64,000 nucleotides of DNA from Psammoneis japonica. Its lineage: Eukaryota. The stretch covers positions 114,476 to 178,475 of the forward strand of contig QPGO01000108.1 of the NCBI GenBank assembly GCA_008632985.1, given 5' to 3'. Below the pieces are notes generated by a model. That model had not been told where the DNA came from. It ran no database searches and saw only the letters and a program-made list of their open reading frames with translations. The position numbers were made by a program, and so were the translations under genes. Below, piece after piece: positions 14,901-44,600 of this stretch (its first letter is position 1; each line of letters starts with the position of its first letter).

Positions 14901-14959
14901 CTTTGGCAGATGCTGGCAACTCTGGCATCATTGTGACTGAAAAATGAAGTGCATGGCAT

Positions 14960-18998: not shown

Positions 18999-19194
18999 TT
19001 GCGCCGGCCAACGACAGTGGTGTCCCACACAACCATAGTGGCAGACGATACTTCGTCTACTCAAGCTTGCCTTGTTGGCTCGTGTTAGTGAGTTAGTGCG
19101 TGAGTGCGGTGTGCGCAGTCGTGGCGTCTGTCCACCGACCCGAATTCTCTATTGTGTCTGTACTTCGACTTGCGCCATCCGACGTGGCGTTCTT

Positions 19195-19800: not shown

Positions 19801-19819
19801 CTTTTTTTCAACCCGCAGG

Positions 19820-21160: not shown

Positions 21161-21163
<3 letters not shown>
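19820..21163 (+). mobile_element. Penelope-like retroelement, 5'-truncated RT copy
   Basis: LKVHKPP, RNGTAMGTPPAPP(Y)AT, FVDD, NFMDLTI, TTLYEK, IPPHSAHPPG, FLHLP(Y)HP and terminal C(Y)SR..NL.NLLS; ends in (GA)n; no GIY-YIG seen. Confidence 0.85.
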
Positions 21164-21197
<34 letters not shown>

Positions 21198-21282
21198 AAC
21201 TTGACTTGAATTGAGTCGATTTAATCAACCCATCTGTCCTTCTTCGGATCTTTTTAACGCAACAATGCCCACCGCACGTTGA

Positions 21283-21352
21283 CAACAACAGCCGGCCGCT
21301 GATGAAGCCACTGCAAAAGTCTCACTCTCCTGATTTTGGCCAACATTGTTGT
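21283..21352 (+). ncRNA. Type I hammerhead ribozyme motif (degenerate)
   Basis: GGCCG-CTGATGA at 21299; CGAAA has decayed to CAAAA; stems I and III are recognisable. Confidence 0.6.
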
Positions 21353-21960
21353 GCCTGCCATTGCTGAAATAGTTGGACAAATGTCCGATTGAGCAGCTCT
21401 GCCTCAGCTGCTTGTGTTGTCATTGTTTGTCACATTTGACGGAAAATTGGCTTCACCAATTTTGATCATTCATTCGAGAGAGAGAGAGATGGGTTTTCAG
21501 CCAAAAGGAGAACAGATCCAGTTTTGCACAAGGGTGTGCAGGGTGTGGAGTTGTGGTGCCTCACAGCATTGACATGCTTGTGGTGGTGAAAGTGGAGCTC
21601 ATGCAGCTGTTGTGAAAAAAGCCACATGCTGGGGCCAGGAGAAGAATGACCTTTGCCACCAGCACGCCTTTGGGCAGCACTGCTGCTTTTGCTCCTGCTG
21701 TGAATGCAACACAGAGGAGGGGGACCACACCCCCCATTGCAGACCCAATGGTCAAACCCAAGTCAACCTCATTTGTGAGACATTTGCCAAACATCCCATG
21801 GTGGGCATGACCACAGAGATGAGAGAGAGAGAGAGAGAGAGAGGAAGCATGCAAGAGAGACAGCGCGTGGTGAACTGACTTGAAAAACAATTGATCTAAT
21901 CAACTTGCCTGTCCTCCACCACCACTTGGATCTTTTTAATGCAACAACCTCAACCACATT

Positions 21961-22008
21961 AACAACAACAGCCAGCCACTGATGAAGCCATCGCGAAAGT
22001 CTCACTCC
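21961..22008 (+). ncRNA. Hammerhead motif with intact core, 3'-truncated
   Basis: CTGATGA-AGCCATCGC-GAAA-GTC at 21979-22001; the 3' strands of stems III and I are missing. Confidence 0.55.
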
Positions 22009-22095
22009 ATGCATTGGCTTGGAACGCAATGAACTGACCCACTTGCCTGTCCTCCACCACTCGGATCTTTTTAAAGCAACAACCTCAACCACATG

Positions 22096-22166
22096 AACAA
22101 CAACATCTGGCTGCTGATGAAGCCACCGTGAAAGTCTCACTCCTGACTTTGGCCAACGTTGTTGTG
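22096..22166 (+). ncRNA. Type I hammerhead ribozyme motif
   Basis: CTGATGA (22114)..GAAA-GTC-tcactcct-GAC-TT-TGGCC-aac-GTTGTTGT; both core boxes are present. Confidence 0.7.
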
Positions 22167-23062
22167 CCTGCCATTTGTCAAAACAGTTGGGCAAATGTCC
22201 GAACTGGCAGCTCTGCCTTTTTGAATGACCTGCCATTGAGCAAATTACAAAAACTCAGGAAAATGGACTGTGTCTCATCCTCCCTGCTTGCAACCACTTG
22301 CCAACCTTTGCAATCATGCTTGACAATGCATTGGCCTTGACTGCCTGATCACATGCTGCAGTTGCTCGCGCAACCTTGGCAACCTTCTTTCACATCGCAA
22401 CCTCCACATCTCCAATGGCCTCCCTGTTTTGTCCTGCCAGATTGCAAACAGGGGGGCCACCAAGAGAGAGAGAGAGAGAGAGAGACAGCACAGTGACTTG
22501 AACTCAAATTGAACCAGTTGATTCAAACCGCCTGTCCCTTGCCCCTTGGATTGTTTCAGCACAACAGCTCAGCTGCTTTTTCACAAAGCACATGGCCTCA
22601 TCTTTGGCAACACTGCAAGAGCACCAGAACCCCAAGACAACCCTCCAATCTTTCTGCATGCACCATTTCACCCAAATGATCCACCACCCAGCAAATTGCA
22701 AAAACTTTGGAAGGGAACCACAGCCCGCCCAGCCTGATCACCACCACTCTCCCAGCTCTGCAATCATGCCCACCAGCACATTGGACTTGACCGCATGATT
22801 GTCTGCTGCAGTTGATCATGCAACCTTGGCAACCTCTTGTCATGCCGCAACCTTCTCATCTCACCCCCCCCCCCCCCAGTTTCGTCCTGCCGGGTTGCAA
22901 ACAGGGAGGCCACTGATTGTTTGTTCGTTCGTTCGTTCGTTCGAGAGAGAGAGAGAGAGACAGTGTGTGGTGAACTGATTTGAACAAACAATCAATGCAG
23001 TCAACTCGCCCATCCCCCCCCACCACTCGGATCTTTCTAATGCAACAACCTCAACCACACAA

Positions 23063-23135
23063 ACAACAACAGCAGCCGGCCGCTGATGAAGCCACCACAA
23101 AAGTCCCACTCCTGACTTTGGCCAACGTTGTTGTG
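23063..23135 (+). ncRNA. Type I hammerhead ribozyme motif (degenerate)
   Basis: CTGATGA at 23083; GAAA box decayed; stems retained. Confidence 0.6.
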
Positions 23136-23402
23136 CCTGCTGTTTGCTGCAACAGTTGGATGAATGTCCAAACTGGTGGCTCCCACCTTGGCTGCTTGCA
23201 CTCTTGTTGGTCAAATTTGATGGAATTTTGTTTGTTCATTTGTTCATTTGTTCATTTGTTTGTTTGTTTGTTTGTTTGTTTGAGAGAGAGAGAGAGAGAG
23301 AGAGAGAGCACAGTGACTTGAATTCAAATTGAATGAGTCAATTCAAACTGCCTGTCCCTTGCCCCTTAGATTGTTTCAACACAACAGCTCACCACACATT
23401 GG

Positions 23403-23472
23403 CAACAGCAGCCGGCCGCTGATGAAGCCACTGCAAAAGTCTCACTCCTGACTTCAGCCAACACTGTTGTGC
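23403..23472 (+). ncRNA. Type I hammerhead ribozyme motif (degenerate)
   Basis: CTGATGA at 23419; GAAA box decayed. Confidence 0.6.
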
Positions 23473-23565
23473 CTGCTGTTCATCTAAATGGTTGGATGAC
23501 TGTCCAAATGGTGGCTCTGCCTTGGCTGCTTTATCTTGATGGAAAATTGGCTTTGCCAATTTGTT

Positions 23566-23600
<35 letters not shown>

Positions 23601-23716
23601 GCATGCAAGAGAGACAGCGTGTGGTGAACTGACTTGAAAAAACAATCAATCCAATCAACTCACCTGTCCTCCACCACCACTTGGATCTTTTCAATGCAAC
23701 AACCTCAACCACGTTA

Positions 23717-23786
23717 ACAACAACAGCCAGCCGCTGATGAGGCCACTGCAAAAGTCTCACTCCTGACTTTGGCCAATGTTGTTGTG
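23717..23786 (+). ncRNA. Type I hammerhead ribozyme motif (degenerate), immediately 5' of the long PLE
   Basis: CTGATGA at 23734; GAAA box decayed; stems retained. Confidence 0.6.
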
Positions 23787-23922
23787 CCTGCCATTTGTTG
23801 AAATGGTTGGACAAATGTCCGAATTGGCAGCTCTGCCTTGGCTGCTGTTGTCATCTGTTTGTCACATTTGATGGAGAATCAGCTGTGCCAATTCTGTTTG
23901 TTTGTAAAAGAGAGAGAGAGAG

Positions 23923-26900
23923 TTGAAAGACAACAATGGACACTGTGACCAAGAGACCAGCATCCCCAAACGTGCACGTTTTGATTCAACTGCAGTGAGT
24001 TCTGCCCAGCAGCAGCCAAGGACACCCCTTGCCACTGCTGCCCAATGCATCAGGGACCATGTCGCATTGCTCCAACCCAAGACAGCCACCATCCTTGAGA
24101 GGCTTGTGCTGCAACACCTTCAACTGCAAGCCAGGGCCCATGACAAGGCCTTTCACATCAAAAGGATGACTCATGACAAGGAGTTTGTCCCCTGCTCAGC
24201 CAGAATCAATTTCAAACTTCAAATGTTGAAAGCAGCTGAACAGAGCCAGGAGTTTGCAGCTCTGCAGGAGGAAACAAACAACCTTGTCAAAAACACCCAA
24301 AAAAATGCCTTCAAAAAGCATGTCATCACTGCCACCAAGATTGAATGCAAAGTCCTTTGAGAAGAAATCATGGAGTTCTGCACAAAAGCCATCTGACTCT
24401 CAACAGAAAGCTTCACCATGGCAGACAGTGTCGCCAAGCCTGTTGACACTGCAGCAGTCACTCCACTTGACTGCTGCCATGTGAGTCCCTGCTCAAGTGT
24501 GTCAAAGTCCATCACAATCTAAGACTGGCCAGCATGCAAGAAGAAAATGGCACCGGGGATTCTCCATTTCCAACACAGCTGCAAGCAACAGCACAAGCAC
24601 CAACACTCACCGCAGCCCAGCAACAAGCCAAAAGCCAACTTGACAAAATCTTTCAAGCTCTGGAGCGCATCTTTTTCTCTCCTTGGGACATCTGCTTGGA
24701 AGCAAAAAAAAAACCATGACATCAGTCTCCCATTCAAAAAGATGGACAAGGAGCACTTCAAGTTGGAAGCAATGGAAAACACCAACTTGGAAATTGACGG
24801 AGAACCTGCAGTCAATCCTGCCACCCTGAAAGAACTCGTTTGCAAGGAGACAGAGAAAAATGCAAAAAAGCTGACTCAGCAGGTCAACTTGCTCTCGCAG
24901 CATGTCAAATCAATGAAACAACAGTCATCAAACAAACAGAGGAGGGGCCCAACCACCAACGCCGGCACCTCATCACAAAAAGAAAAAGGCAAAGGTGCCT
25001 CATTGGGTTGCTCAAGGAAACAAAACGCCCTCCACGCGACCGCAGAGCCAATGATGCTGACAAAGACACCGCTGGTGCCAACAAAAACAATCGCTGCCAC
25101 ACCAAATCAAAACAGCCATCAAAAAAGAAGCAGCAGTGCTCCAACACCAACTGGAACAGGAGCCAGAGACAATGTCAGCACAAATCTACCAAATGCATGG
25201 ATTTGTTGCTGATCTCTCCAAATTGCTCTCACACATCGCCTTCCTGCACCTTGGTGACATGCCTGCTTGGTGCTGCTTTGGCAGACCGTCACACCTCCTC
25301 TCCTTTCACAACTGCACATCTGTGTTCAAATCACCAAAGAACTTCAAATCACTCCTTGGTCTCAGCCTCAAGTTCATCCCTGCACCTCACTTCGCTGACA
25401 GTGGCAAGTCACTCAAGTTCCAAGACCACATGCTTGGACATTTCAAGCTGGACCTGGACAAACGCGACTGCTTTGCAAATGCACCAATCAACAACAATGA
25501 AGACTGCTGCAACCCAAGAATGCATCTCCGACCCAACTGGATGCCACCCTCTTGGAATGAAGCCAAAATTGTTGAGTGCCGCTGCGTGAATTTCAAAACA
25601 AAACTCATGCAGCTTTTTGCCAAACGCCATGGTAAAACCAACCTCCTGCCCCGCCAATGCCACGCCCTCACCCATTTGCACAAACAAGATGACTTTGTGA
25701 TTGCCCAATGTGAAAAGAACCCGGGCCCTGCCATTGTTGAAAAAACCAAACACATCAAAATGGCATGCTGCGATCACCTCAACAATGCAGCCGCGTGCCA
25801 CCATCTTAGCAACTCCAAAGCCACCGTGTGCAAATGCCGCATCAAAAAGCTTCTTGCTGACTGGCTCAGAACACACAAAGCCAATCTAACCCCAATGGAA
25901 TGTGAGCATCTCAAACATCACATTGAGACAAATGAAACCCCACCCCCTGTCTTCTGCCTCACTTTGAAGGTGCACAAGCCTCCACCACTTAAATCGCAAC
26001 CCATCGTCTGTGCAAGCGGCAGCTTGCTGCATGGCTTGGGCATCTGGGCAGACACTGAACTATAAAAAGTCATGCATGAGCAACCACCACACTTTAAAAG
26101 CTTGTTGGACCTCAAAAATGAATTGGCCCAAATGGCGGTGCCACCGGACTGCCTCCTCTTCACTTCTGATGCTGAGCCCTGCTGCTCAAACATCCCAACA
26201 AGCAAAGCACTTCAAGCAATTGCAGCCTTCCTGCAATGACATGAGAGTGAATTCCAAGATGTCCCAACAAAGGCCCTCATCAGAGCCCTCCACATTGCAA
26301 TGAAACACAACGTCTTTGCCTTTGGAGACACTGCATGGCTTCAACAAAATGGCGCTGCAATGGGCACACCACCTGACTCCTGGAGGAGTCAGGCGCCAAC
26401 CTTCTCTTCTGCAAGAGATTCGTTGACAATGCATTTGGCATTTGGAAAATCACTGAGCCTGCCACCGACACCGCATGTTGGAGAGCATTTGCACCCAAAA
26501 TGCATGACTGCGACATTGATTGGGTCACGAGCTCCAGACCACACACCACAAACTTCATGGACTTCACTGTCACACTCCAGGGCTCTCGCCTGCACACCAC
26601 CACTCTCCACAAGAAAGCAATGAATCCATGTCCACACATTCCACCACACTCAGCCCATCTGCCTGGAGTGCTTGCTGGCCCAATTGTGTGAATGCTCTTC
26701 TGCTTCAAGAACCTTTGCTCCGATCCAACCAGTGCCAAAGCAAAAATGAAACTTCTTGATCTTTGCCTGCTTGCCCGAGGCTGCAAGCCCAGCAAGCTTC
26801 AACCCATCTTTCAAAAAGCACACGACCACTTTTTTGGAAATGCGATGACTGCAGAAGCGCCCCCATCCAGCCCCCCCATCCAGCCCCCCCATCTTCCTCC

Positions 26901-27160
26901 ATGTCCCACATCACCCACATGACCCACCATTGAGTGAATTGCAGAAGGCCTGGAAAGGAACAATGGCTTCTTCCCCTTGCTCCCAACCACTTGCCAACAT
27001 TCAAAATCACAACCAACAACGCATCGGCTTGGAACACATGACAGCTTGTCCCAGCTGATCATGCAACCTTGGCAACCTCCTCTTGCATCCCATTCTTTGC
27101 ACACCTCTGCTGCCCCCCCAGCTTCATCCCACCGGATTGCAAACAGGGAGGCCACCAAGA
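23923..27160 (+). mobile_element. Penelope-like retroelement, near full length: helical N-terminal/ORF1 region plus RT, no endonuclease detected
   Basis: ORF1-like DKEFVP(R)SARINFKL; RT region LLGLSLKFIP, (D)KN(L)GPAIV, LKVHKPP, NGAAMGTPP, KRFVD, NFMDFTV, IPPHSAH; same 3' end GGATTGCAAACAGGGAGGCCAC followed by (GA)n. Confidence 0.88.
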
Positions 27161-27182
27161 GTTTTGTTCGTTCATTCATTCA

Positions 27183-27214
<32 letters not shown>

Positions 27215-28208
27215 CAAGCAGTGAAGGCCTGTTCCAGCTCCAGGTGCTCCGCGTGGGTTCGATCCCATCATTGGCCCATTTTTGGGTTCAGCGCAAATGA
27301 CTTTTTCAAAATCCGTTTTTTGCCAAATCGAAGGGCAAGCCACCGAATCGAAAAATTTGCGACATTGCAAAATTTGCGACAAATTCCGAATCCCCGCACA
27401 ATCATCGCGCGGCGAGTCGAGAAACGACCCTTGTCACCCTCCAAGATCGTCTTTGCGACGCGGCCAACATCCTCTGGTGCAATTCAAGGTGCAGGCGTTC
27501 TTTCTACTTCGATTAAGAAAAGATATGATGCACGAGAAATGACAAGAAATCCTTATTTTCAAAGGAAATTGCCTTCTCGTGACAGCAACTCATGCCGACG
27601 CATCGCAAGATTTCAACAAAAAATGACCTTTTTGGATGATTACACCGCCTTTCCTCACAAACAAAACGTCACATAGCTCGTCATAATGATGACAATCTGA
27701 TTGGTTTGTTGTTTCATGTCACTTGCAGACCTTCGGTTGTCGAAACAGCATCATTTGCTCATTTGAAGCGAAAAATGAAGCACTCAGAGACCTCGCACGT
27801 GCTTTCATCGTGAAAAAATTCAAGCCATTTGTTTTTATAAATTAATTTGCGATTCGCAAATTTTGCGTTTCAGCAGCAAGTGTACACTTTGCATGTGTTT
27901 TCGGGTGTACACTCACCTTTCGATTTTCGAAATGATCAAAAATGAAGGACTCAATTGTGCCAAATGTGATTTTCGGCTGGTGTCCCATTCTACGTGAAAA
28001 ATGCTCGTGATCACTCACTTTTTCATTTGTCGGAGCTCGTGTTTTTGGTCTTCTTCAACTCAACTGACGTCCGAACATGCCTCATTTCTGCAGACACAAT
28101 GCAGTTAATTTGATTGAGCACGCCAAAAAAATGTGTCCTCTCGACTTGCCATCCGTCTCATCCACCAGCCCTCTCGATGCACACTTTCAATCAAATTTCC
28201 AGTGCATC

Positions 28209-31200
28209 ATGGGCAACAAAAGGAAGAAGCAAAATGGAGTTGGCCGTCGACACAAGTCAGGGACTGGCAACAGCAAAAACAAGAAGCCTTGTCATGAACT
28301 TGAAACACACTCCACGGTCTCCAACCATGTCGTTGCTGCAGCTGAAGCAGCTGCAGCTGCTCCCTTCAATCCGAACAACCCGAACTCTGCTGCCTCCGTC
28401 ACTCCCTCCGTTGCTCCCACCGACCTGGCTGCTTTCAACCCAAACCCCTCCACAGAACACCTCACTCATTGTCCAGTGTCATCCTTGCCAAGACCGCCTG
28501 GCCCCTCCCAAATGCACACTGCAGGAGCGGCCACCACTCCCTCCAACCCTGACTCTGACAATGCAGCCGTCACTCCCTCCGTTGCTCCCACCAACCTGGC
28601 TGCTTTCAACCCGAACACCTCCAAGGAACACCCCACTCATTGTCCAGGGTCATCCTTGCCAAGACAGCCAGGCCCCTCCCAAATGCACACTGCAGGAGCG
28701 GCCGCCACTCCCTCCAACCCCAACTCTGACAATGCCGCCGTCACTCCCTCTGTCGCTTCGGCCAACCGAACTGCTGTCAACCTCACCGCCTCCCAAGGTT
28801 GCCCCACTTTTAATCCTCATGCATTCGAAGCAACCCACAAAGATCCCCAACAGGCACTTTGTCATGCAGCGGTCAAAGTGAGAGAAGGAGTGTTGTCTTG
28901 CGCCGCCACTCAAGAACAACAAATCTGTGCGTTTGTGCATGCTTTGCATTTTCCCGAAATGGCCCCATTTCTTCAGGCTTGTAATTTGACATTGCTGAAA
29001 ACAAATGCTGCGGCCTTGCAAATTGCCAAGCAGTTGGGCAAAATGTGGGCACGTGCCAACGACACCAGCAATGGTCAACACCTCGCTGACGACAAAAAAT
29101 CGTTTGTCCGTGCTCTTGCAACTGGAATCTCCGGTTCACCAGAAAAATCTGCCGAAGAGGAAAAGTTGTCTTCCCATGACTGCGCCAAGGCACTTGGCCT
29201 GAAACGGAGCACTGTTTGTCGCCAAATGAAGAAGGGAAAGATTGCCAGAGAGGCATTGCTTTCAAACACTGACGATGTCATGTGGTCTTCAGTGCAACCC
29301 CGTCGGCGTCCTCACAAAGTTTCCCCTGAGATCCGAAAGGCATTTGTGCACTGGTTGTCAAATCATCCCAACATGGTGCAGTCTCCCAACACACGAGACA
29401 TGATTCTCATTAAAGATGAAGATGGAAACAAGAAACGAGTGAACAAATGGCTGCACAATGTGTCCATGCGCAAGTGTCTGTTGGCGGATTCGAACATGCA
29501 CGTGATGCCAATGGCAAGACCCTCATCAGTGACATGATGTTTCGATTTTTGATTCCCAAGCAGTGTCGAAAAATGAACGCAAGTCAACGCAGCATGTGTC
29601 AATGCAGCGATTGCACCAATGCCAATTTTCTACAAGATGCATTGAACAGGTTTCGAAGGAAGCTTTCAAAAGAGATGGAGGTGGAGCAAAATTGGTTGAA
29701 GCTTGCGAGTGAGGATCCTGAGAACTTGGAGAACTGTGACAGTGCCCTTGGCAAATTGGAGGAAACAATGCGTGTCTGTCAAGAGGAAGCGTTTGGCCCC
29801 AACGGCCATCACCTTCATCCTAAAGCCCAAGATGCAGTTGCAACCATCATTTGTGGCAACGTCAATGGTCAGGATCATCCTCATTGGAAATGCATTTTGG
29901 GTGAATGCGAGCATTGCCCATCCCATCCAACTCCATTGTTGGGACAGAATGAAAGTCCCGGTGCACCCCAAGTTTTGTTTCAACGTCACTTGACTGTAAA
30001 AAGTTGTTCCAAGCATGGTGTGTGCATGGAAGCATGTCCTGTTTGTGAGGCAGATCCAGATGGGAACAAGGGTGCAAAGGTGAAATGCAGGACCTTGTTG
30101 ACAAGGTTCCGAAAACCAGTCGGTGTCTTTACAAAAGAGCACTGCATTCCAAGTTTAGAGAAGCTCCGCTGCCACCTTCCCCATGTGGTCATTCTTGGGA
30201 AAAATCATTGCATGGAAATGCGTTGCAAAGCATTTGAGTCAACACCCAACAGCCTGTTCACATCTCATGACCACTCCGAGAGTGTCAGAAGGCAGAGTTC
30301 AACAACCAAGTTCAGGGTGACCATTGTGGCAACAACCGAACATTGTCAATCGAAGGAAGAGTTTGCGATGCAATGGTTGACAAAGGGCTTCAGAAAACAC
30401 ATCATGCGCATCTCTCTGACTCTTCCAAGCAAGATGCCACCACCACCAATGCTCGCTTGGAAAAGTTTGTCACCTGGTTAAAAAACCGCAACCTGTGTGA
30501 GGCGCGGCTTGTGATTTGGGATCACACTGATGGTTGTGCCAAACAACACCGATGTGCTTTGGCGCTGTGCTTGTTGTCTGTCTTTGCGCACAAACACAAC
30601 ATTGTGTTTGACCGTGCCATTGGAGCACCTGGACATGGCAAAGGAGAGGTTGATGGCATTGGAGCCTGCATCAAATCACTCATGCATCGAGAAATGCAGT
30701 CCACAACTGTTGCAGGAGTCAATGACAAGGATGGGAAAATTGGACCTGAAGCTTTGGTCATGGATGACAACAGTGTTGTAGCTGCACACAGTCATGCAAA
30801 GGAATGTCACAAAACAGTCACAAAGAACAAGAGTGCTTTCGGCACAGTTGGTTGCAGAAAACATGCCAAGAGGGAATCCCTTTGAAAGTCAATGGAAAGG
30901 GTGCATTGTCTGCAGGAAGCTGACAAAGTTCTTGGCTCTTCAATCAAAGTCAAGTTGACTGGATTGGTGCAAGTGCACATGCACCATTGTGGCATTGGAG
31001 CCTTGTGCCATTTCCGATTTGAACCTCTTTTCCCCATTGGCTGGGCTGCGATGCGAAGAATTCCTTGTGCTTGTGAAGCCTGCCTGGATCAGCTGAAACG
31101 GCCTTGGGTTAAAAATGTCAAGCCAACAGAGCAGCCACGACATGCAGGTGGCAACCGAGCTTGCAAACTGTGGCCCATCTTTGAGGGACTGAACGATTGG

Positions 31201-31800
31201 CAAGTGTGTCAGGTGATTCAAACAGATGAGAGTGACGCCGACGAGGTGCAGCTGGTTCACAAATCTGTGTTGGACTTCCTGACTGAGGAAATGGCCAAGG
31301 AAATTGTTCCAAACAGCTGTGCCGCATTGTCTTGTGAATCTGAGGAGGGGCTCCATCTGCTGCAATGGGATGAACTCCCCCACAAAGCACAGGAGGACGA
31401 GGTTTGGAAAGAGTTTGACCCACCCATGACTGTTGAGGCCGGTGAATGGGTTTGCAAGGGAGTGCATCTTAACCCTGTTCCACGGGCCAGAGGATGGCAC
31501 ACTCCCAGTGATGCTGAGGAATGCAAGACAAGAGTGTTGCTCAAGCAAATTGCAGTTGGCAGCATTGAGCTTGATGAACCATCAGCCAATCTGGAGCTGC
31601 CAAGTGCATGCATGAAGGAACTCTGGATGCCATCTGACAGTGGGAGGCAATGGATTGTTTTGAGGACTGTTCAGACGAGGTGGAGGAACAAGACATCGAA
31701 ACTGGTGAGTGGGGGGGAGAGAATGACGACATGGAAGACACTGTGGATGATGATGAGAGCACGGCAGGGGACAGTGACAGCAACAATTCGGACAAATAAA
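28209..31800 (+). pseudogene. Sola2-like DDE transposase, hypermutated and frameshifted
   Basis: C.C.DC, KCILGECEHC, D(Y)SE, LSD..KQD, WDHTDGCAKQ(Y)R and APGHGKGEVDGIG match the DG..QY and GHGKG..DG motifs of Sola2-type transposases; RRIPCAC..C follows downstream. Confidence 0.75.
28396..28755 (+). repeat. 171-bp (57-codon) tandem repeat in the transposase N-terminus
   Basis: CCGTCACTCCCTC at 28396, 28567 and 28738. Confidence 0.9.
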
Positions 31801-34800
31801 ATGGCAATGTCATGCAACTAGATTGACCATCCAACACAAAAGCTTTCCTTTTTGCACGCAACTTCTGCTGCACCACCCTGGGAAGTTCGAACTGGTGCAC
31901 CATGAACACTTGTTGCAGACGCTTTTTCGCCACACATTTCACCTCATGTTCCTCGTTCCCAAGACACCAATTGAAACACTTGATGTCCTTTGCTGGCAAT
32001 GCAAAAGGGTGGTTGGAATCAAAGATCCATCCATGGTGCAAGGCAATGCAGTGGTTGTTCACAAGATGGCACAAAGTTGTGAAGTCATCATTGCAGGTCG
32101 TCACGTCAAATTCACCACCTGCTGCAAGGGAAATTGTTCGATCCACACTGCCGCAAAACTTCATGTTTGAGTTCTCAGGCGGGAATTTTTCTTTCAAACG
32201 ACCGTTCAACATGTTCTTTGCAAACAACATGCGCTTGTTGTCAGTGTCAGCACAGTTGGCAGATGTTTGAATGTGAGAAGCAATGCAGTCTCTCATTTCC
32301 ACGTCACCAGCACAATCAAGAACACTGGCCAGGGAGGAAAAAACGCAAGTGTTGTTTTGTCCTTGCTGCAGGAATTTCATGGGTGGACCGCTCGTCGGCA
32401 AGTTGCTGTTCGATGGCATCAACATGTTTCCTTCCGGCAAGGAGCAACAACCATCCGATGGCTTCAATTCTTTCAAATCTTTCCACACATCTGGAAACCG
32501 AAACTTAAAATTGCACTCAGCCCAATCCAGGGCCACATGCATGGGACGGTTCCCCTCCAAGCTGCAGCCAATGAAATCAGCTCCCCGCCCAACAGGTGGA
32601 AGTTTTTGAATCTCCGCTTCAGCCAATCTCTTCAGTTTGGCAATCTGTGGTGGGTTGCAAATTGATTCCACCTTGTTCTTAATCTCGTCCCTGCATTTTC
32701 AATTGAGTTGCTGGGGAATGTTTGGTTTGTGTTTGGCACGTGCAATGAGGCCCGCACACATGTTCATGGGATGGCCGTTCATTTCATCGTGTCGCAAGTC
32801 AAACCATGGTTCCCACAACATGACGCCCTTGTTTTTCCCTTCAAAGCAACCAAACAAGTGAGGAACATCTCCTTCGGAATCACCAGGACGCTGACGCCTG
32901 CTGTTCCATTTGCTTGGATCAATCCAAGTGAGTTTTTTAACCTGCAACATCACTTGAGCGTCTTTGCACTCACACTCATGTTGATCCCTTTCTTGTTGGT
33001 GTTGCTGCGCTTTGGTCAGCCGATGCCATGAAGTGTCTCCTTTTGGCCTTGGTTTTGGGACAGAGCTGCGAAGGCCAATGAGATCCTCATCCTCATGCAC
33101 TCCAGGGATTTCTTTCAAAAGCTGATGTGAGCGTCTGCAAAAAGCCCCCCCCCACCATCTCCCACTTCTCTTCTGCAGCCGGGGCTTTCTTCCTCTTGTC
33201 TCTTGCAGCCTTGGCTTTCTCCCTCTTCTCTTGGGCAGTCTTGGATTTCTCCCTCTTCTCTTCTGCAGCTGCAGAAACTTCTTCCTTGTGTTCATCGTCC
33301 TCCTCATCCTCAGTTTCCTCTGGATCTTGCTCCTCCTGGATTTCATCTTGCACACCGTCATCTTCCTCCTCTTCCTCCTCTTCCTCAGTTGACTGATCCA
33401 TCGCCCCATCTTCCTCCTCTTCCTCAGCCGATTGATCCATGGCCCCATCTTCCTCCTCCTGGTTTTTGTCTCGCAGTTGCAACCTTGCAGTGCCAGCCTC
33501 GGCCTTTTGCAGGTCGTCCGTCTCTTCAGTGCCCTCCTTCCCCTCTTCCTCTTCCTCCTCCTCCACCTCTTCCTTCAACCCTGCATCACGGGCACCAGCA
33601 TGATGCATGTGGCGATGGCAATGAATCCTTCTGCAAAACTTGCACCATACAAGTCCAGGAGCTGCCTTGCACCAATCAGCAAGGTGAGCAAGCGGCTCTT
33701 TGAAACAATCCTTCCTGCTTGGTCTGGCAGGGAAGTGAACTTCAACCATCTGTTTGTCTTCGGTGACGGCCTCCACTAACTTGGAGTGTCATTGCGGCTT
33801 GAAAGGCTTGCACCGCTGGTCCAGCGGACAAGCGGTGCCTCTGCATTCACCATCAGAGGTGATCCGCAATGCATGGTTGCACCACCAACCTACAATGATG
33901 TCAAACAAGGCCTCGGATGGCAGTCTGTCATCGGGGTCGAATGGCCCAAATGAGAAAATCCTCCGGCAGCCACTCCTGCAACTCATGAGCACTTTGTGTG
34001 GTGCGTTGGTGGAAGTTCGGGAATGCAGGGATCTTCCTGCATGTCATCATCTGACTGTTCAAGCTTCTCCCTTTTACAATGCTCGTCATGAAAAACACAA
34101 TCGTCGCTGTGATCCACAATGGGCTTCTTCAACTTCTCACAGCTGATGCATGGTTTTCGACGCAGCTTTTCGTCCACCTGCTTCCTCTGAGCGATTTCAT
34201 TTGGAACAGAGCGATGGTTGCAGATTGAACCCCAGTGCTGTTTTGCAGGTAGAACGGGACATCTTGTTTCACATTTGAACTTGACGTCCAACCCCTTCAA
34301 AGCCAACATTTCAAAATTGTTCTTCACCCCCTTTGGAGACTTAATTCGCCACCAACTTTGAAACACGACCTCGCCAAAAGGCAGCCACGCATGTGTCTTT
34401 AAATCTTTGGTCGACTTTTCATCATCGCACGTTTCTAGGTTTTGAATGTTGACCAAAGATGCCAAGTGGAATCGGTGCTTGGCAATGCACGAATGATCAG
34501 CAATGCATCCTCCTTCAACAAGCAGTTCCTCCCAAAAGTCTTCATCCTTGCGGATCTCTGTTGCAACGTTCTGATGCTCGGCGCTGGAATGAGGCAATGC
34601 CAAAACAATTGCAGAGCTCATTGGAGCAATCCTCTCCTTTGCACACAGGGCAACAGTGTTGCCTTGATCATTCATCATGAGATCATCCCAGTCCCAGTGC
34701 TTGCAGACGTTCGCCAGATCAGAACGATCACTCATGGTGTCCGTGATGTCCTCAAAACCCATCACTCCCATGTGATGAGACTTCAAAGTCTTCTGACAAT

Positions 34801-35518
34801 GAAGACATGCATCAAGTCCAATCAAAAAAGGACATGCACCTCAACTCGATGGTGTGATCGATTGACTCTCATCGCCCGCCCCAACTGACACAACCGGAGA
34901 CTCTGTCACAAGGGCGCAATCAACAAGCAGGCCAATGTTTGTCTTGACACGGTGCATCAAAACAGCAGCAACATTTTGCTTGTCCTTCATGGCGTCCCTC
35001 ATCAACATTCCTGATGGCACCACAACCAACATCAAGAGGTGCTGGTTCTTGTCCTTGATGTGTTGTTGGTTCAGTTGCGGTCGATTCTCGGAGTTAAATT
35101 TTTCACAAAACCAATCGACAACAGTGTTGCGGAATGTGTTCCGTGTTTTGGCACTGTTGAACCCATCCAAACCATTCTTGTGATGAAGAACATGAAAGAG
35201 AGGGCTCATCTTCTTTGTTCCACGATCTTCTGTGGTCAAGATGCTCAAATCTACAAGACCTTGAGGGCACTCAAGGGGATCAACTGCATCTTGGAGAGGC
35301 ACAGTGTGCCAAGTTTTGGCTTTGCCCTGCGGTGGGTGATGTTCCGCGAGTGCCTTGACGCAACGCTGGATGCAAAAGGAAACCTTCAACATGCTGGAAG
35401 AGTCATTGTTAGCTTGAGGAGAACTGCCGCCAATGGGGCGCTGCTGGGAGGCTGCTTTGGCCAACGTGTCCATGGCAAATGCACTGCTTTTGCACTTCTG
35501 TTTGTGTGACAAATGCAC
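31800..35518 (-). pseudogene. Accessory/cargo ORF(s) of the transposon: acidic repeat region and papain-like peptidase-type domain
   Basis: Long minus-strand ORF segments (34841-35518, 33983-34825, 33093-33776, 31541-32671); QQGQNNTCVFSSLAS and NHCIAL..GWIFDSN give a Q/C/H/D pattern; Glu-rich EEEDGAMDQS repeats. Confidence 0.5.
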
Positions 35519-35745
35519 TCCAGAGAGGGGGGCAACGTCAGTTGCCGTGAAAGTGACGTGGATGAACAGAGGCAGCCTCTAAGGCAGTTCCAGATGCTGA
35601 AAAGTGTCAAACAGCAAGCTGCACTCCCGCTTGCATGACAAATGCACTCCAGAGAGGGGGCCAACGTCAGTTGCCGCGAAAGTGATGCGGATGAACAGAG
35701 GCAGCCTCTGAGGCAGTTCCAGATGCTGAAAAGTGCAAACAGCAA
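35507..35745. repeat. 129-bp tandem duplication
   Basis: TGACAAATGCACTCCAGAGAGGGGG at 35507 and 35636. Confidence 0.9.
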
Positions 35746-36829
35746 GCGTCACAGTGAAAAAAAACCAAGACAAGTTTGTTCCAGTGGAAACTGTCACTCT
35801 GAGAACACTCGGGCGAATGCTTGAGTTTTGTAGAAATTCTGAAGGCCCTGGTGCAAAACAACCATAAAACAACACGTGAGAAGCAACCAGAAAAATGCAC
35901 GCACGTGGTGACGCGTAAAAAAAAGCACAACAGAACGACTTGCCAAATTTGAAACAAGAGAGCACAAAGAGATGGTGTCATCCGCAACAACAGCAACTCT
36001 TTAGAGCTGCAATTGCATTGCGACAACAATGATGTGACTTTGAAATGAAAGGAACAGGCGGTTCCATGCAACCGCAAGGGCAAAGAGGGGGTTGCGGAGT
36101 GGTGACAGCGGTGTGCTGCGTTGTGGCTGGTGTGTGTTGGGCGGACGGCACGTGTTCATAGAAGTCAGTGTTGTTCTGCGCATCGCCAGAAAAACATTAA
36201 ATGCCAACTGACACGATTCTTCCTGTGACGCATCATGCACCTCAGTTGTTGCACATGAGCACTGGTGTCACAAATGTGTTGCGTCATTGAAACAATCAAT
36301 GTTTGCACAAAGCCAAAAAGTGCGAGCTCTGCTGGGTGGAGACAAAAATGTCTGGTGCTGAAAACTGTGCAGAAAATCTAGCGTGATGAAAAGCGGAGCA
36401 CCTGGAGCTGGAACAGGCCTGAACTGACTTGAAAAAACAATCAATCTAATCTCAACTTGCCTGGCCCGGGGTTGCAAACCCAGCAAACTACAACTGCTCT
36501 TCCAAAAAGCACATGACCTCATCTTTGGCAATGCTGACAGAACAACAGAAGAGCCCCAGTCAAACCCAATCTTCCTGCATCTTCCTCACCACCCAAACGA
36601 CCCGCCATCCAGTGAACTGCAGAAATTGTGGAAAGGTGCAATGGCCAACCCTCCCCACTCACAACCTCTCTCAAACCTTTGAAATCACACCCGACAACGC
36701 ATCGGCCTCAACCGCATGATTGTTTGTTGCAGCTGCTCCTGCAATCTTGGAAATCTCCTTTCCTGCCATGTGCTCCGAGTCTCCCATGGCCCCCCAGTTT
36801 CATCCTGTTGGATTGCAAACATGGAGGCC

Positions 36830-36872
<43 letters not shown>

Positions 36873-36956
36873 AAGTTGACTTGAATTGAGTTGATCCAAT
36901 CAACCCGTCTGTCCTTTTTCGGATCTTTTTAACGCAACAACGCCCGCCGCACGTCA

Positions 36957-37028
36957 ACAACAACAGCCGGCCGCTGATGAAGCCACCGCAAAAGTCTCAT
37001 TCTCCTGACTTCGGCCAATGTTGTTGTG
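36957..37028 (+). ncRNA. Type I hammerhead ribozyme motif with perfect stem I (GGCCG/CGGCC)
   Basis: GGCCG-CTGATGA (36974)-AGCCACCGC-AAAA-GTC..GAC-TT-CGGCC; only G12 is lost (CG->CA). Confidence 0.68.
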
Positions 37029-37267
37029 CCTGCTGTCACTGAAATGGTTGGACAAACATCCAATTGAGCAGCTCCACCTCAGCTGCTTGTGTCGCCATTG
37101 TCACATTTGACAGAAAATTGGCTTTGCCAATTGTGGCTGTTCATTCGAGAGAGAGAGAGAGAGAGAGCAAGCAGTGAACTGACTTGAAAAAACAATCAAT
37201 CTAATCTCAACTTGCCTGTCCTCCACCACCACATGGATCTTTTCAATGCAACAACCTCAACCACATC

Positions 37268-37338
37268 AACAACAACAGCCAGCTGCTGATGAAGCCACCA
37301 CAAAAGTCTCACTCCTGACTTTGGCCAACATTGTTGTG
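37268..37338 (+). ncRNA. Type I hammerhead ribozyme motif (degenerate)
   Basis: CTGATGA at 37286; GAAA box decayed. Confidence 0.55.
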
Positions 37339-39193
37339 CCTGCTGTTTGTCAAAACAGTTGGACAAATGTTCGCACTGGTGGCTCCACCTTGGCTGCTGT
37401 CATCATCTGTTTGTCACATTGTTTGATGGAGAATCGGCTGCACTGATTCTGTTCATTTGTTCAAGAGAGAGAGGAAGCATGCACCACATTTCTGAAAGCA
37501 AGCCAAGTGCCTTTTGTGACAGCCAATGCTGCCACAGGGCACAAGCAACAAGGGGCCAGAGCAGTGTCTGCCATCTGTTTGTCCACAGCTGGAGCCACAT
37601 CCAAAGCTGGGTGTGTGCAAGACTGTCCAGAGTTGAGGCCGCCAGGGGGATGTCTCAGCCTTTGCAAGAACAATGCCTGCTGCTAAAAAAAGAGATCACA
37701 GCAGGCCCTTTTTTGTGTCAGAAGGACACAAGGCCCTTGCCTGGTTGATGAGAGGGCAAAGAGTGGCGTGCTTCTCTGTGGAAGACTGCAGAGAGGTGCC
37801 AGGCTGGAAACAAGATTGGCTTGGAGTGATGCTGCACAGTCATGCTCTAGCTTGTCCAGGTGGGGGCCCAAATTGCTGGACTGCTGAGCTTTGCATTTTT
37901 TGACAACCCAGTGCAAAAAGCATGCACACCTCTGTGCAAAGCTTTGAGTCATTTTGCACCAGTTTGCAGTGCAACTCAACAACATTTTTTGCCCTGCTGT
38001 GTTCTCTGACATCTGCAGAGGAGAGTGCAGCCATGCACACAAAGTTTCCAAAACTTCAAGCATGGAGAGGTGCTAAAGTCTGAAGTTGTGCCACAAAAGT
38101 GGCTGTCAATTTCCACTGCAGAAGGCAAATGCATTCATTGCCTGGTGTGTTGTGAGCTGGAGAGCTTTGTGCAGAGTTCAGTGTGAGGGTGTGGTGTGAA
38201 GCAAAGCTGAAAAACTCCTCTTTTTTCCAAAAAATGTGAAATTTTCCATTCACCCAACACATCAACAGCAAGCAGCAGTTCTCAGAAATTGGCCAAATGT
38301 CTGAGCTTTGTGAGCTCAGCTTGTGACTGCAAGCAGGCAAGACATGACAACACAGCCAAATCAACAACAGCAGCAGTTTGCTCATTTGTGGCTTTGTCAT
38401 GTGTTGCCATGTGAGGCAGCTTTTGATGGCCTCTTCCCACACCCATTGTGTCTCCACTTGTGGCCACGACAACAAGGCAATGAGAAAACAAACACACCGC
38501 GCATCAGCAGCCACATGGCTTGTCAATGTCATTTGTGAAGAAGCTTGGACAAACCTGGAAGACTGCTGCAAAGCTGTGCACAACAGGAGCTTGTGACATG
38601 ACAACATGTGCTGCGTTCACAACCATTCTGTGCTCAAGCCTGTGACTTTTGGGTGTCGTTGATGCCTTTGCTTGACAGAATGACACTTTCAAGACAATCT
38701 GTTGTGCAAGCTCCCTCAATCACACTGTCCAGTCTTGAGCCACCATCTCCTTCTCAATCCTGGCTTGAGTGCCCCTTCTGCCAGCCCTTGCTCCAGTCTG
38801 GCCACCGCAAAAGAAGAGAAGAAGCTTCTGCATCAAGGGCACCAACGAGCTGCTTGCGAGCCTGTCATGACCACCTGCTGAGTCACAGTGGAGCACACAT
38901 CATTCCCTTTGCTCTGTTGAGGACCACCATGGCTCCTCATCCCTTGGAAGCTTCGCCCACCAACTTCTCTTCAGCCAGCTCTCTGCTCTCTTCTTTAATG
39001 AGCCGTCTGCCAGTCCCTTCGTGTGTACGGTAACCAAAATGCCTTGCCAGCAGCAACGCAGCGGCACGGGGCGCGCACAAACCAAGACCATTGCGAACTC
39101 CGAACTGCGAACCCCATCATACCGGCATCTTGGATCTCTCTGTGTTCGCATCCCCCCAAAACAACAAAACAATCCATTCCATCCCTGCTGACT

Positions 39194-41102: not shown

Positions 41103-41610
41103 CCCTTCAACCACCACGGAGCAAATCTCCACGGGCGGAGATTTGCTCTGCTCAAGGAATTGTGAGGTGTCATGCATTCATGCAATGATGCAATGAACAT
41201 GTTATAAAAATGTCACATCATGTACAATCTACGTAAAACACACCACAGGCATTTTCAATTTGCTTGTTGCGAGCAAATCTCCACACCGGCGGAGATTTGC
41301 TCCAAGGGTGTGGCATTCACTGCTCTGTTGTGACAGCAACACATCACAAATTTCATTGTCAAAGGTTAAGATTTAGTTCCTCTCTGTTCATGGATGAAGC
41401 ATGCAAAAAACCCAGTGTCAAAAGTCGACATTGAACTTTCTAAATTGCAGAAATGGCCCCCCAGAGAGCGCTCGGCGAATGCGCACTCCAAAACAAAATC
41501 GCGCAGATCCTTTGTCACTCACATCTGAAAGTGTTGTGTTCATTGCATTTGTGACACAAGTGAGCAAATCTCCACCCATGGAGATTTGCTCAAGTCTGGT
41601 GGTTGAAGGG
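41103..41610. mobile_element. piggyBac-like MITE with three internal palindromes
   Basis: TTAA|CCCTTCAACCACC at 41103-41115 with inverse GGTGGTTGAAGGG at 41598-41610; GAGCAAATCTCC-N6/8-GGAGATTTGCTC at 41119, 41271 and 41562; the right flank is CCAA, not TTAA. Confidence 0.7.
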
Positions 41611-44600
41611 CCAAAAGACATTTTCAGCACCGAAAATGTGTCACTGGGCCCAAAATTTCAAAACCTCGTTTTGCTCTGCTCGATCGCCAGGCGAGACAAG
41701 TGTGAGATTTCATGGGCAGCATCACTCCCTCCAAGAGGTGACAGCAAGTTGCAGATGTTCTTGTCATTTTTCACACTTTTTGCACTTGGCAGCAGCTGCA
41801 TTTCTGCACAACAATGCCCCGTGCCCGACAACAACAAGGAACATGTTCTTGCGAGAGTTTTTGGAGCTGACAAGTGTTTTTTGGGGTCAAGTTGCAAAAT
41901 GAGCAATTGCACAATGTGGCACTCATCTGTTGTGTGCATGAATTTTTCTGACAGCACCACTTTGACATTCCACCAGATGCTCCAAAGAGCTCTGGTGTGC
42001 GCTGATGAGCGCCTCCCTGAAAAAGGTGAGAGCGGGGCAAACTTTTGAGGACAAAAAGCACTGTTTTGTGCTCACACCATTGCCAGGTCAACCACAACAT
42101 CCATCTGTTACATGCCCCTTGTTTCTTTCTGATGCCATGTCACCGTTGTTTGTTTTTTGCATCAGATGAGGCCCCAAAGAGTTCTGGCATGGTGCCAGAA
42201 GACAAGTGCCCCCCCCCCCCAAACAAGGTCAAAGCAGAGCAAACTTTTGAAAGTGGCAAGTGTTGTTTTGAGCTGGTGCCATGTCATTCAGTGTCAAATG
42301 CCCCAAAGAGCTCTGGTGTGCATTGGGAGATGAGCACCCCCTTGCTGAGGTGAAAGCTGAGCTCCCTGCAACTGAGGTGAAAGTTGAGGCAGCATTGCTT
42401 CCAGAGGACAATGTGACTGAAGATGATGCCAATGTGGAGCAGTGTGGCCATGGCTCCAATCCATGTGTGACCATTGAGTGCTGTGGCTGCATTGTTGGCC
42501 TTGGCAAAAGAAGCATGAGTCTGTGTTGGGCAAGACCAACAAAGAAATTGGGCTCAAGTTGTGCCAGGAGGCCACCAGATTTGTTCATGGCTGCCTGGGA
42601 AAAGGAGATCATGAGTGCCTTCCTCTGCACATTGCAGGTGCAATTCATGTGAGGTTTCCTGATGTCACCCGCATGTGCTTCAAACCCAAGCAGACTTTTG
42701 TCCATGCACACATGAGACAGCCTTCAATTCAGCAGCATGCATTGCTTTTAAACTCCACCAAAAGTTCTTGGACAGGCACCAGAGTGTGAAATGCATGAAG
42801 ATGGAACAGCGTGCGTGTGTGCATCACACAGCAGACAATTTGTCCACACACTTCAACCTCTGGCATGACACCTCGCCACATGTTTGCAGCACTGTGTGAG
42901 CTCTAGAAAGACTTGCTGCAAGGTGCATGACTGAGTGCATTCAGCAGCTTGCTTGTGTTGATGGTCAGCTCTCAAGATGACACCCTCACCCACAAAAGCA
43001 TGGCATGACATTTTTTGACAATTTTGACCAGGAGGCTGCATGTTGGGCCTCTCAAGGGGGGCCATCCCAGTGTTTGTCCTAAAATTGCCATGGCAGTTGA
43101 ACAAAGTTTTTTGTGATGTTTGTTTTGATTGCAAAAATCACTCTTGTTCACACCCAATCATGCACAAAAATGAGAACATCAGGCACAGGGCCCACGATTG
43201 AAGCACGACAATCATCAACGTTTCTGTGGGGGGTCCACAAGGACCTTTGGCGTGCACAAGGAACACAAAACAAACAAGAGTTTGTGGATGCCCCCCCCCC
43301 CCTCTGTGTCACAGGCTTCTGGTTTGCTGTTTCCACCACAGTGAAGCATGGCAAAGTTCAAGAAAATCATGCGAGTCAGCCACAAGCCATTGGGCCAAAA
43401 AATGCCCCCCTCAACTCAATGTTTTTGAGGGGCACACTGGCCACTTGCAAACATGTGCTTTGGCTTTCACACCTCATCTTTCAGACTGCCCTCACACAAG
43501 TCTCATTGACAAGCTGTGACCCCTTGCAGCCATGACCAACTCAGGTTGTTGGGCACCTCTGCGGTGGCAGCAGGGCACCAAAACTTTTTGCTGCTCTGGT
43601 GTGGCAGCATTGGGGGAGCTGGTGGAGGTGCTTCAACTGTTTTGCTTTTTTGACATGAACAGTGTCTCTGCTGCTTCATGTGCTGTGTGGCCTCTTTGAG
43701 GAGCCAACAAAGCTGCCAATGACATGGGTGGGACCTCACAAATGCCCCCCCCGGGGCACCAAGTCCTCATTGTCATTTGGTGAAATTCTTGCCAGCATTG
43801 GATCTAAAATGCACAGTCAAGGCTGCCACTGCATTGACATGACTGCAACCTCCAGCAGCTTTGTTGGCTTCAAGGACAAATGCTGAGCCTCAGAAAGCTG
43901 CAAAAAGGGCAGCAGTCTAAAAGTCAAAAGTGAAAAGAATTGCTTGAAAAGGCTTCAAAATTGCACCAATTGTGGTGCCAATTCCAGGCAATCTGCCAGC
44001 AATCAAGGGCCTGCCAATGTTGTGCAGCGCAGAGCACACACACTGTGTCTCAGCTCAAGGTTTCGTGTTGGGAGCCATGTGAGCATGGGAAGTGGTGTTG
44101 TGATGCCGACACAACTGAAAAAACAGCCTGCCTGTCAATGCAGAAAAACCTGCACAAAATGAGAAAACTCCCCCCCCCCCCAGCTGATGGCCATTTCAAC
44201 AGAAAAGCAAAAGTGGCCAGCAGCTGCAACAAACTCAGTCTGGCTGTGGTCATGGGGAAAAATTGTCCCACAAATTTGGGGCCCTTTTGAACAACCAAGT
44301 TTGGTTTGGGCTGCTCAGAGATTGTTGGGAGACTTGGCAAGAAATGCATTGTTTAATCAAAGGGGCACCATCATGATGAGAAATTTGCACTGTGCCCTCC
44401 CTGTCTCCTCTCTGACTGGATTTTGACTGTTTTTGAGGTGAGCATTTGCCCTGACTGCTGCAGGCTGAGGGCACACAAAATCATCAAATTGTTGACGAGA
44501 TTTGCACACACACACACAGTTCGGTGATCATCTCACAAGATTTTTGGTGTGACCATGGGTGCAATCTTTAAAAAACATTTGTGGCTGCTTGCTTGGGAGG

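Follow-up and report, generated by a model that had tools for sequence, protein, structure and literature searches.

TpA-specific hypermutation with a downstream-base preference in transposon and repeat domains of a Psammoneis japonica contig

Known hypermutation systems and the TA-poor domains of the window

Hypermutation at TpA has been described in the chlorarachniophyte Bigelowiella natans, and here we report a TpA-directed mutational footprint in a 64,000-nt stretch (hereafter, the window) of the Psammoneis japonica contig QPGO01000108.1, with positions 28000-35800, the interior of a 9.2-kb transposon, as the region of first interest. In a B. natans mutation accumulation study, 231 of 302 new mutations fell in two integrated viral regions, and all but one of the 231 were A:T>G:C changes at TpA, with a de novo rate in the integrated viral DNA of ~6e-7 per site per generation (bioRxiv 10.64898/2026.01.13.699255). 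The B. natans genome also contains 124 clusters of windows poor in TpA but rich in CpA+TpG, in which transposon domains, and also unannotated genes, are enriched; Mettrop et al. propose an ADAT2 homologue as the editor, without evidence of its activity (bioRxiv 10.64898/2026.01.13.699255). The main text of the preprint is silent on flanking context, trinucleotides and CpG (bioRxiv 10.64898/2026.01.13.699255). A full-text literature search on the phenomenon returned only this preprint, and literature searches for TpA hypermutation in diatoms found no report of it. Repeat-induced point mutation (RIP) of fungi is similar in the domain-wise, dinucleotide-specific transitions that ruin repeats and can reach adjoining genes. 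Unlike RIP, which converts CpA/TpG to TpA, the changes described here convert TpA to TpG/CpA and are its mirror image. In place of the C>T changes at CpA (or CpG) and the TpA excess of RIP in duplicated DNA, we find a 10-fold shortage of TpA together with an enrichment of CpA/TpG.

The window has a G+C content of 49% and dinucleotide relative abundances (rho) of 0.30 for TA, 1.51 for TG, 1.41 for CA and 0.61 for CG. Segmentation with a two-state hidden Markov model (HMM) on TA density separated five TA-poor domains (36,035 bp, 149 TA, TA rho 0.05-0.07) from four normal domains (27,965 bp, 1,103 TA, TA rho 0.54-0.60). The TA-poor domains, as delimited by the HMM, the transposon with its two genes and the sulfatase gene are as follows:

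1..5419: TA-poor domain 1; TA rho 0.05, CG rho 0.14, TG/CA rho 1.8-1.95
11010..17149: TA-poor domain 2; 25 TA in 6,140 bp, right border within the sulfatase reading frame
19162..38995: TA-poor domain 3; 89 TA in 19,834 bp, a repeat mosaic that includes region 28000-35800
41235..45241: TA-poor domain 4; 15 TA in 4,007 bp
63366..64000: TA-poor domain 5; 2 TA, truncated by the end of the window
27219..36426: DNA transposon of 9.2 kb with 34-nt terminal inverted repeats (27219-27252 / 36393-36426) and two convergent large genes
28449..31821 (+): transposase-like gene of the transposon, with the frame shifted near 29476 and near 30290 and interrupted by TGA at 30883
31541..35578 (-): second large set of open frames of the transposon, with no relatives detected within 211-674 aa
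15430..17497 (+): remnant of a sulfatase gene, split over the frames 15430-15834 and 15788-17497, identified with Pfam PF00884 and homologue alignments

TA-poor DNA as a whole is 10-fold depleted in TA (rho 0.06) and enriched in TG and CA (rho 1.69 for both; range across domains, 1.5-1.95), with a CG rho of 0.37. The base composition is unaltered (A+T, 50.8% versus 51.6% in normal DNA). Among the NA steps, the loss is restricted to TA: AA, CA and GA are not depleted, and AA/TT rho is even 1.25 in TA-poor versus 1.16 in normal DNA. The TA-poor domains hold the transposon with terminal inverted repeats, a reverse transcriptase (RT) fragment, satellite-like repeats and a bacterial-like sulfatase, that is, repeats and broken genes. 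Normal domains carry host genes for a PreP-type M16 peptidase, an FSH1 hydrolase, a GFO/IDH/MocA oxidoreductase, a sulfotransferase, Sec24, a methyltransferase and a protein with helicase-associated (HA) domains. Hence the B. natans pattern of foreign or mobile DNA domains with sharp borders recurs in the window, and host genes such as those for Sec24, PreP and the sulfotransferase all lie in normal DNA.

The resemblance to B. natans, as described in the preprint, extends to the mutations themselves: only TpA is hit, the products are TpG and CpA, the domains are kilobase-scale and foreign or mobile, and low TpA combined with high CpA+TpG is left as the long-term signature. Unlike the B. natans viral region, where the reported TA rho is 0.45, the domains of the window are near saturation (rho 0.05). 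The host also differs. In contrast to the chlorarachniophyte, the window encodes a diatom-like Sec24, a single protein with best relatives at 71-76% identity; all seven organism-named proteins among its best 120 matches are from diatoms (63-70% identity), with Thalassiosira represented twice and Fistulifera, Seminavis, Nitzschia, Epithemia and Discostella once each. Judged by its signature, the TpA hypermutation in the window is the same kind of process as in B. natans, in what looks like a second lineage. The phenomenon itself has already been described in B. natans; the new parts are the flank rule and the likely diatom host. The preference at positions +1 and +2, the additive kinetics of the two strands and a separate CpG decay, all described below, go beyond the main text of that preprint.

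Loss of TA steps and the influence of the downstream base

The interior of the transposon (28000-35800) retains 30 TA in 7,801 bp: 19 in YTAR context (Y, pyrimidine; R, purine), 10 in mixed contexts (RTAR or YTAY) and one in RTAY. TTAA (12) dominates the YTAR survivors, followed by CTAA (3), TTAG (2) and CTAG (2), and the single RTAY is the ATAC at 33647-33650. An earlier note on this DNA had described the residual TA as mostly YTAR and RTAY as almost absent, with one ATAC at about 33647, and the counts confirm it. The skew is general to TA-poor DNA, with 83 YTAR, 59 mixed and 7 RTAY sites versus 203, 587 and 313, respectively, in normal DNA (chi2 113, p 2e-25). In the four TA-poor domains with at least 15 TA, the YTAR fractions are 10/18, 11/25, 51/89 and 10/15, and RTAY sites number 0, 2, 4 and 1; the fifth domain, with two TA, has one YTAR and no RTAY. 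The same note had proposed beforehand to count NTAN tetramers in repeats versus genes, and survival proved far from uniform against each of three composition nulls: flanks drawn from the dinucleotides of the TA-poor domains themselves (chi2 58, p 3e-9), TAs formed anew out of the TG/CA present locally (chi2 106) and the NTAN frequencies of normal domains (chi2 210). Removal of paralogous duplicates left 138 sites, which also reject uniform loss (likelihood-ratio test [LRT] 123, p 2e-26). Recurrent survivors are of the TTAAA and TACAA kinds.

We modeled the loss by letting the A in 5'-T-A-N-3' of each strand be lost at a rate r(N) set by the downstream base, so that the survival of XTAZ is exp(-(r(Z)+r(comp X))). 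With four parameters, this additive, per-strand model fits each of the ten NTAN tetramer classes (G 2.5, df 6, p 0.87); it is strongly preferred over uniform loss (LRT 147, p 1e-31). As products of rate and exposure, the fit gives 0.30 for a downstream A, 0.88 for G, 1.85 for C and 2.26 for T. Bootstrap intervals on the de-duplicated sites (A, 0.17-0.52; G, 0.71-1.09; C, 1.52-2.10; T, 1.87-2.66) keep A, G and the pyrimidines apart from one another without overlap, and the probability that T exceeds C is 0.94. The influence of the flank extends further downstream in a logistic model, in which an A at +2 protects a further ~3-fold (chi2 61) and an A or T at +3 a further 1.7-fold (chi2 16). As an independent baseline, we used 80 marine-metagenome relatives of the transposon protein, with 12,786 TA sites. 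None of these relatives is TA-depleted (TA rho minimum 0.40, median 0.63, up to 0.9), and they give the identical order of rates (fit p 0.92-0.96, LRT 147-150). Because the rates of the two strands sum, TTAA, CTAA/TTAG and, less so, CTAG persist, and RTAY is gone.

The direction of change is read from conserved tyrosine codons. The 34 conserved Tyr columns in TA-poor DNA now encode Cys (TGY) in 13 cases, His (CAY) in 15, Tyr in three and other residues in three; thus, 28 of 34 have become Cys or His, as expected if TpA changed to TpG or CpA. Nine His, five Cys and no Tyr are found at the 16 Tyr columns of the transposase-like gene, and eight Cys, six His, three Tyr and one Asn at the 18 in the TA-poor part of the sulfatase. 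In the main frame of the sulfatase, 2 of 16 conserved Tyr columns still read Tyr, versus 179 of 229 columns retained among all the other conserved residues (p 1.7e-7). Of the conserved Lys and Asn columns, 13 of 15 are intact (Lys, 5/6; Asn, 8/9) with zero A-to-G replacements, and AA codons were therefore not hit. Adjacent double differences between paralogous repeat copies point the same way: CA<->TG occurs 182 times and every other type at most 13 times, the mark left when duplicated copies of an ancestral TA (or CG) are hit independently. Overall, neither strand is hit more than the other, with TG:CA ratios of 350:350 and 336:371 in the two transposon genes. This ~1:1 ratio in both genes rules out a transcription-strand bias. 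Read from the DNA, these patterns show that the transitions are TpA-specific and domain-limited and that, on each strand, they depend strongly on the bases that follow downstream.

The border of one domain falls inside the sulfatase frame. There is no TA between 16689 and 17150, and the last 348 bp (17150-17497) contain 10 TA, a normal level. A hypermutation border at ~17150, within one reading frame, indicates targeting by position rather than by the identity of the gene or repeat. The nearest relatives of the sulfatase are metagenome proteins (46-56% identity), some on Mb-sized contigs, and its named relatives are bacterial (28-31% identity); the gene was perhaps gained by horizontal transfer and then caught up in the TA-poor domain. 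The column of the catalytic Cys reads Ser in this protein.

Which side of the TA step carries the preference is a separate question. Survival depends only on the sum of the rates of both strands, and survivor counts are therefore mathematically blind to the difference between TAY and RTA. The earlier note had argued for TAY from the survivors, an argument that is not decisive for this reason. The products are informative. Under a 3' rule, the chance that XTAZ yields XTGZ is r(Z)/(r(Z)+r(comp X)), and under a 5' rule it is the complement of this value. We compared these predictions with the gains of TG and CA tetramers over the baseline, allowing for TG/CA derived from CpG. The 3' rule left the smallest residual sum of squares, 41.6k, compared with 72.3k under a uniform rule and 147.6k under the 5' rule. 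Across the six non-palindromic classes, the asymmetry between TG and CA products tracks what the 3' rule predicts (r 0.97), with a combined directional Z of 4.88 and 17 of 21 2-kb blocks positive (Wilcoxon p 0.002). With the metagenomic baseline, the product asymmetry gives r 0.88 and Z 5.04, and the transposon alone gives Z 2.79. This asymmetry favors a preference located 3' of the mutated A, i.e., TAY, and the TAY preference proposed in the note is borne out by it (Z about 5). What changed is its form: TAY is indeed the target and YTAR survives, and the rule is refined to T >= C > G >> A, with G intermediate and a 3' A protective. The note had also cited sulfatase YTAY sites that became TG, and its examples (C|TGC, T|TGC, T|TGT) are verified in the sequence; the eight Cys and six His of the gene do not discriminate in favor of TAY.

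Candidate agents and rival explanations

A TpA-specific transition process (TpA to TpG or CpA) has swept the transposon, the repeats and the adjoining DNA. The two strands of a TA step were hit independently, with the 3' base setting the rate of A-to-G change. As the agent we propose an enzyme that reads sequence and acts on each strand separately, most likely a TadA/ADAT2-type polynucleotide adenine deaminase with DNA as its substrate, and some signal may guide it to silenced or foreign chromatin. To this reading as a whole, a TpA-specific sweep with a TAY-ordered, strand-wise footprint left by a DNA-acting TadA/ADAT2-like deaminase, we assign a probability of about 0.6.

The flank rule is compatible with a TadA/ADAT2-like deaminase. 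TadA and ADAT2-3 require a pyrimidine (U33) 5' of the edited A, like the strict 5' T in the window, and these enzymes and the TadA-derived editors act on one strand at a time, as here. The natural TadA site is UACG. The likeness has limits, since TAT (1.9-2.7) is as fast as or faster than TAC (1.5-2.1) in the window, and an A at +2 is protective. In keeping with a TadA-like agent, a TadA-8e variant edits the A in 'YAC' (PMC13109818). ADAR and fungal TAD2/3-type editing share the A-to-I chemistry and the preference for a 5' U. The preferred triplets are UAG for ADAR and UAG/UAA in Fusarium (PMC4817773, PMC5389660), and these best triplets are the two slowest contexts here. The slow TAG and TAA argue against an ADAR-like or fungal TAD-like specificity. 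AID/APOBEC enzymes resemble the proposed process in leaving a short-flank deaminase footprint that is used as a defense, yet they change C to T, whereas the changes in the window are at the A:T of TpA and the CpG C>T component is almost without flank motif.

Several observations weigh against the proposed reading. The conserved Tyr codons do not distinguish the 3' rule from no rule (log-likelihood -19.39 versus -19.41), in a comparison underpowered with 28 events, and the 13 Cys observed are fewer than the 17.1 +/- 2.5 expected. The 330-bp repeats described below show a weak trend (TG:CA, 34:18 at sites predicted to be TG-prone and 20:21 at sites predicted to be CA-prone) in copies that are not independent, and one of the few polymorphic sites seen in other copies, at 27691 (ATAA>ATGA), opposes the 3'-rule prediction. 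Both the survival and the product analyses presuppose an ancestral tetramer usage similar to that of the baselines. TAT at least as fast as TAC is also unlike the prediction for a TadA site of the tRNA-Arg(ACG) type. The footprint makes the enzyme a candidate; deamination of the A in TAY and alteration of the T in RTA would leave one and the same footprint that sequence cannot separate. The Tyr codons do clearly disfavor the 5' rule (log-likelihood -23.64), but the split of the 28 events by preceding base is weak as a test of the flank rule (4 Cys/10 His after a purine, 9/5 after a pyrimidine; Fisher p 0.13).

Since A-to-G on one strand is T-to-C on its partner, a thymine-directed chemistry at R-T-A fits the data equally well. 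The T of 5'-R-T-A-3' could, for example, be modified to 5-hydroxymethyluracil by a TET/JBP-type dioxygenase and then mispair with G, giving T>C, which would leave the identical footprint, read on the other strand, with both strands hit equally. In dinoflagellates, 5-hydroxymethyluracil is reported to replace T preferentially in TpA and TpC, which counts in favor of such a chemistry. The only 2-oxoglutarate (2OG) oxygenase of the window is, on the other hand, a weak AlkB-like match to PF13532 below the cut-off, and the B. natans authors favor deamination in their preprint, likewise without proof. We consider a thymine modification unlikely, and local DNA structure or chromatin, with A-tracts protecting the TA step in place of base contacts by an enzyme, somewhat less likely still. 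Structure could account for protection that reaches to an A at +2 and an A or T at +3 and for survivors in TTAAA- and TACAA-like contexts. It should nonetheless protect both strands alike and produce no asymmetry of products, and the asymmetry has a Z of about 5 with two baselines; furthermore, TAT is the fastest context despite its A/T richness.

The remaining explanations are each very improbable. In one of them, an ADAR-like enzyme would edit double-stranded RNA made from the repeats, and the edits would be copied back into DNA. ADARs favor a 5' U and usually target repeats (bioRxiv 10.64898/2026.01.13.699255), and they can deaminate dA in DNA/RNA hybrids (PMC5389660). But ADAR prefers UAG and also edits AAG well (TAG 94%, AAG 81%, PMC5389660; UAG, PMC4817773), whereas in the window TAG is slow (0.9), TAC (1.9) and TAT (2.3) are fast and AA is untouched. 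Moreover, untranscribed spacers, satellites and the DNA transposon are all affected, on both strands. Error-prone synthesis by a Pol eta-type polymerase during the repair of repeats, which yields A>G at TA, fares no better. The Pol eta motif is WA and includes AA, yet AA is not depleted (rho 1.25 versus 1.16), the 13 of 15 Lys/Asn columns are kept with no A>G, and the TA depletion is near total (rho 0.05). On these grounds the earlier note was right to prefer a TA-specific agent over one of the WA type. It is equally hard to credit that there is no footprint at all and that the elements were natively TA-poor, experienced selection against TA or had their TAs regenerated from TG/CA. Most of the TA-less state of the transposon is common to many copies, as such a view would predict; against it stand the 80 relatives of the family, with a TA rho of 0.40-0.9 and none depleted, the replacement of conserved Tyr by Cys or His in broken genes, the bacterial-like sulfatase affected only up to a border inside its frame and the rejected regeneration null (chi2 106).

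Transposon copies, repeats, CpG decay and the meaning of the footprint

The two arms of the terminal inverted repeats of the transposon are 34 nt long and 94% complementary. Among the sequencing runs listed, this stretch was found in one DNA run, with 0.47 of its words, and in no RNA run. Contig depth in that public run was 2,000-5,000 over the transposon versus about 65 on unique flanks, a ratio that suggests roughly 30-75 copies. We compared the copies at the 40 best-supported of 283 variable places in contigs of this run, a number too small to polarize TA events. CpG transitions make up 18 of the 40 differences, and those involving TA are few: in one, the window has TA and other copies TG, and at 27691 and 29667 TA is found elsewhere and TG/CA in the window. 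A further four rows come from a single contig and represent two TG<->CA changes of neighboring bases. The paucity of TA differences between copies indicates that the copies spread after most TA had been lost or that a single mutated master gave rise to them. One part of the element departs from this pattern:

27500..28000: sub-terminal island with 13 TA kept, including GTAC twice and ATAT

Contig depth also peaks over this island (4,300-5,000). The island may be an insert of younger age, or it may have been protected from hypermutation, escaped it or arisen after it.

The transposase-like protein belongs to an unclassified family with 727 matches, the full-length members of which have ~1,150 aa and a normal Tyr content. 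No Pfam family was assigned to ten of its full-length relatives. A single-protein metagenome scan found no close relatives, and a profile scan found distant, unmutated ones only. A model of the conserved core (predicted local distance difference test score, pLDDT, of 74) has the order beta-beta-beta-alpha-beta-alpha-beta. A Foldseek search of this model against the PDB gave nothing at E <= 0.001, and its best VIA-align neighbors are retroviral integrases and the Mos1, IstA and Sleeping Beauty transposases, with Z scores of only <=6.6. The 9.2-kb element is likely a DDE transposon, and the modeled RNase H-like fold is only suggestive. For the minus-strand gene of the transposon, no relatives were found at E <= 1e-5 in a search limited to 211-674 aa.

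Gene prediction would be misled in the TA-poor domains. TAA and TAG are near extinct there and TGA is almost the sole remaining stop. The 10 kb between 27000 and 37000 contain 39 frames of at least 100 aa and are open in all six frames. The near-loss of TAA and TAG thus creates long open frames in all six frames that can deceive gene callers. In Pfam scans of 8 + 30 + 98 frames, the sulfatase and a fragment of an RT RNase H were the sole names obtained in TA-poor DNA, and no deaminase was found among the proteins of the window. Look-ups in the ESM Atlas yielded no informative name or taxon. The RNase H fragment and the other repeats are:

400-747 (-): retroelement RNase H fragment (Pfam RT_RNaseH_2, PF17919, E 2.8e-8) inside TA-poor domain 1
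20795..23922 (+): array of ~330-bp repeats, with units starting (GA)n and further copies at 36420-37475

The position of the RNase H fragment in TA-poor domain 1 indicates that retroelements are affected besides the DNA transposon. Tandem Repeats Finder did not detect the 330-bp array. Its copies differ chiefly by CA<->TG double changes and were therefore hypermutated after amplification.

A tandem segmental duplication (10615-11895 / 18451-19643, offset about 7.8 kb) spans the 3' part of the FSH1 hydrolase gene and the start of a TA-poor domain. The duplicated host segment is 93.7% identical, adjoins the TA-poor domain and is unmutated; duplication as such was therefore not the trigger seen here. 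Within the TA-poor part of the duplication, the differences are mostly CpG transitions, and the TA-poor state is common to both copies, with no independent TA events.

CpG loss follows a different course. CpG survival in TA-poor DNA is 0.40, and the flank-specific rates span only 0.36-0.54. Among 1-kb windows of TA-poor DNA, CG rho varies from 0.04 to 1.17 while TA rho stays at 0-0.18. The near absence of flank dependence and the unevenness of CG where TA is uniformly gone rule out CpG loss as part of the TA enzyme footprint. It is a separate, slower process, most simply the decay of 5-methylcytosine in methylated repeats; CG methylation in diatoms targets mainly transposons (PMC9998398). The opposite AT>GC and GC>AT biases of the two processes cancel each other, and the G+C content remains unchanged.

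Two further genes were noted in normal DNA, and we found no link between either of them and hypermutation:

54267-55247 (+): weak AlkB-like 2OG-Fe(II) oxygenase match (PF13532), below the Pfam cut-off
61573-63006 (-): protein with four HA domains

We tentatively entertain the broader possibility that TpA-directed DNA-editing defense also operates in diatoms, with a footprint unlike that of ADAR or fungal TAD enzymes, and that its agent is a new or re-purposed adenine deaminase or a thymine modifier shared across the algae of the stramenopiles, alveolates and Rhizaria (SAR). The flank rule (T >= C > G >> A at +1, a protective A at +2 and strand-independent hits) offers a direct biochemical test of candidate editors. 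It also lets annotation recognize and 'de-mutate' hypermutated DNA, with its Tyr to Cys/His changes, TGA-only stops and spurious open reading frames. Should the assignment to diatoms prove right, TpA hypermutation is no curiosity of one alga and may be a widespread defense in major marine phytoplankton. Such a process would destroy transposons and horizontally acquired genes while leaving the base composition unchanged and would be, if true, a mirror image of fungal RIP across the SAR algae.

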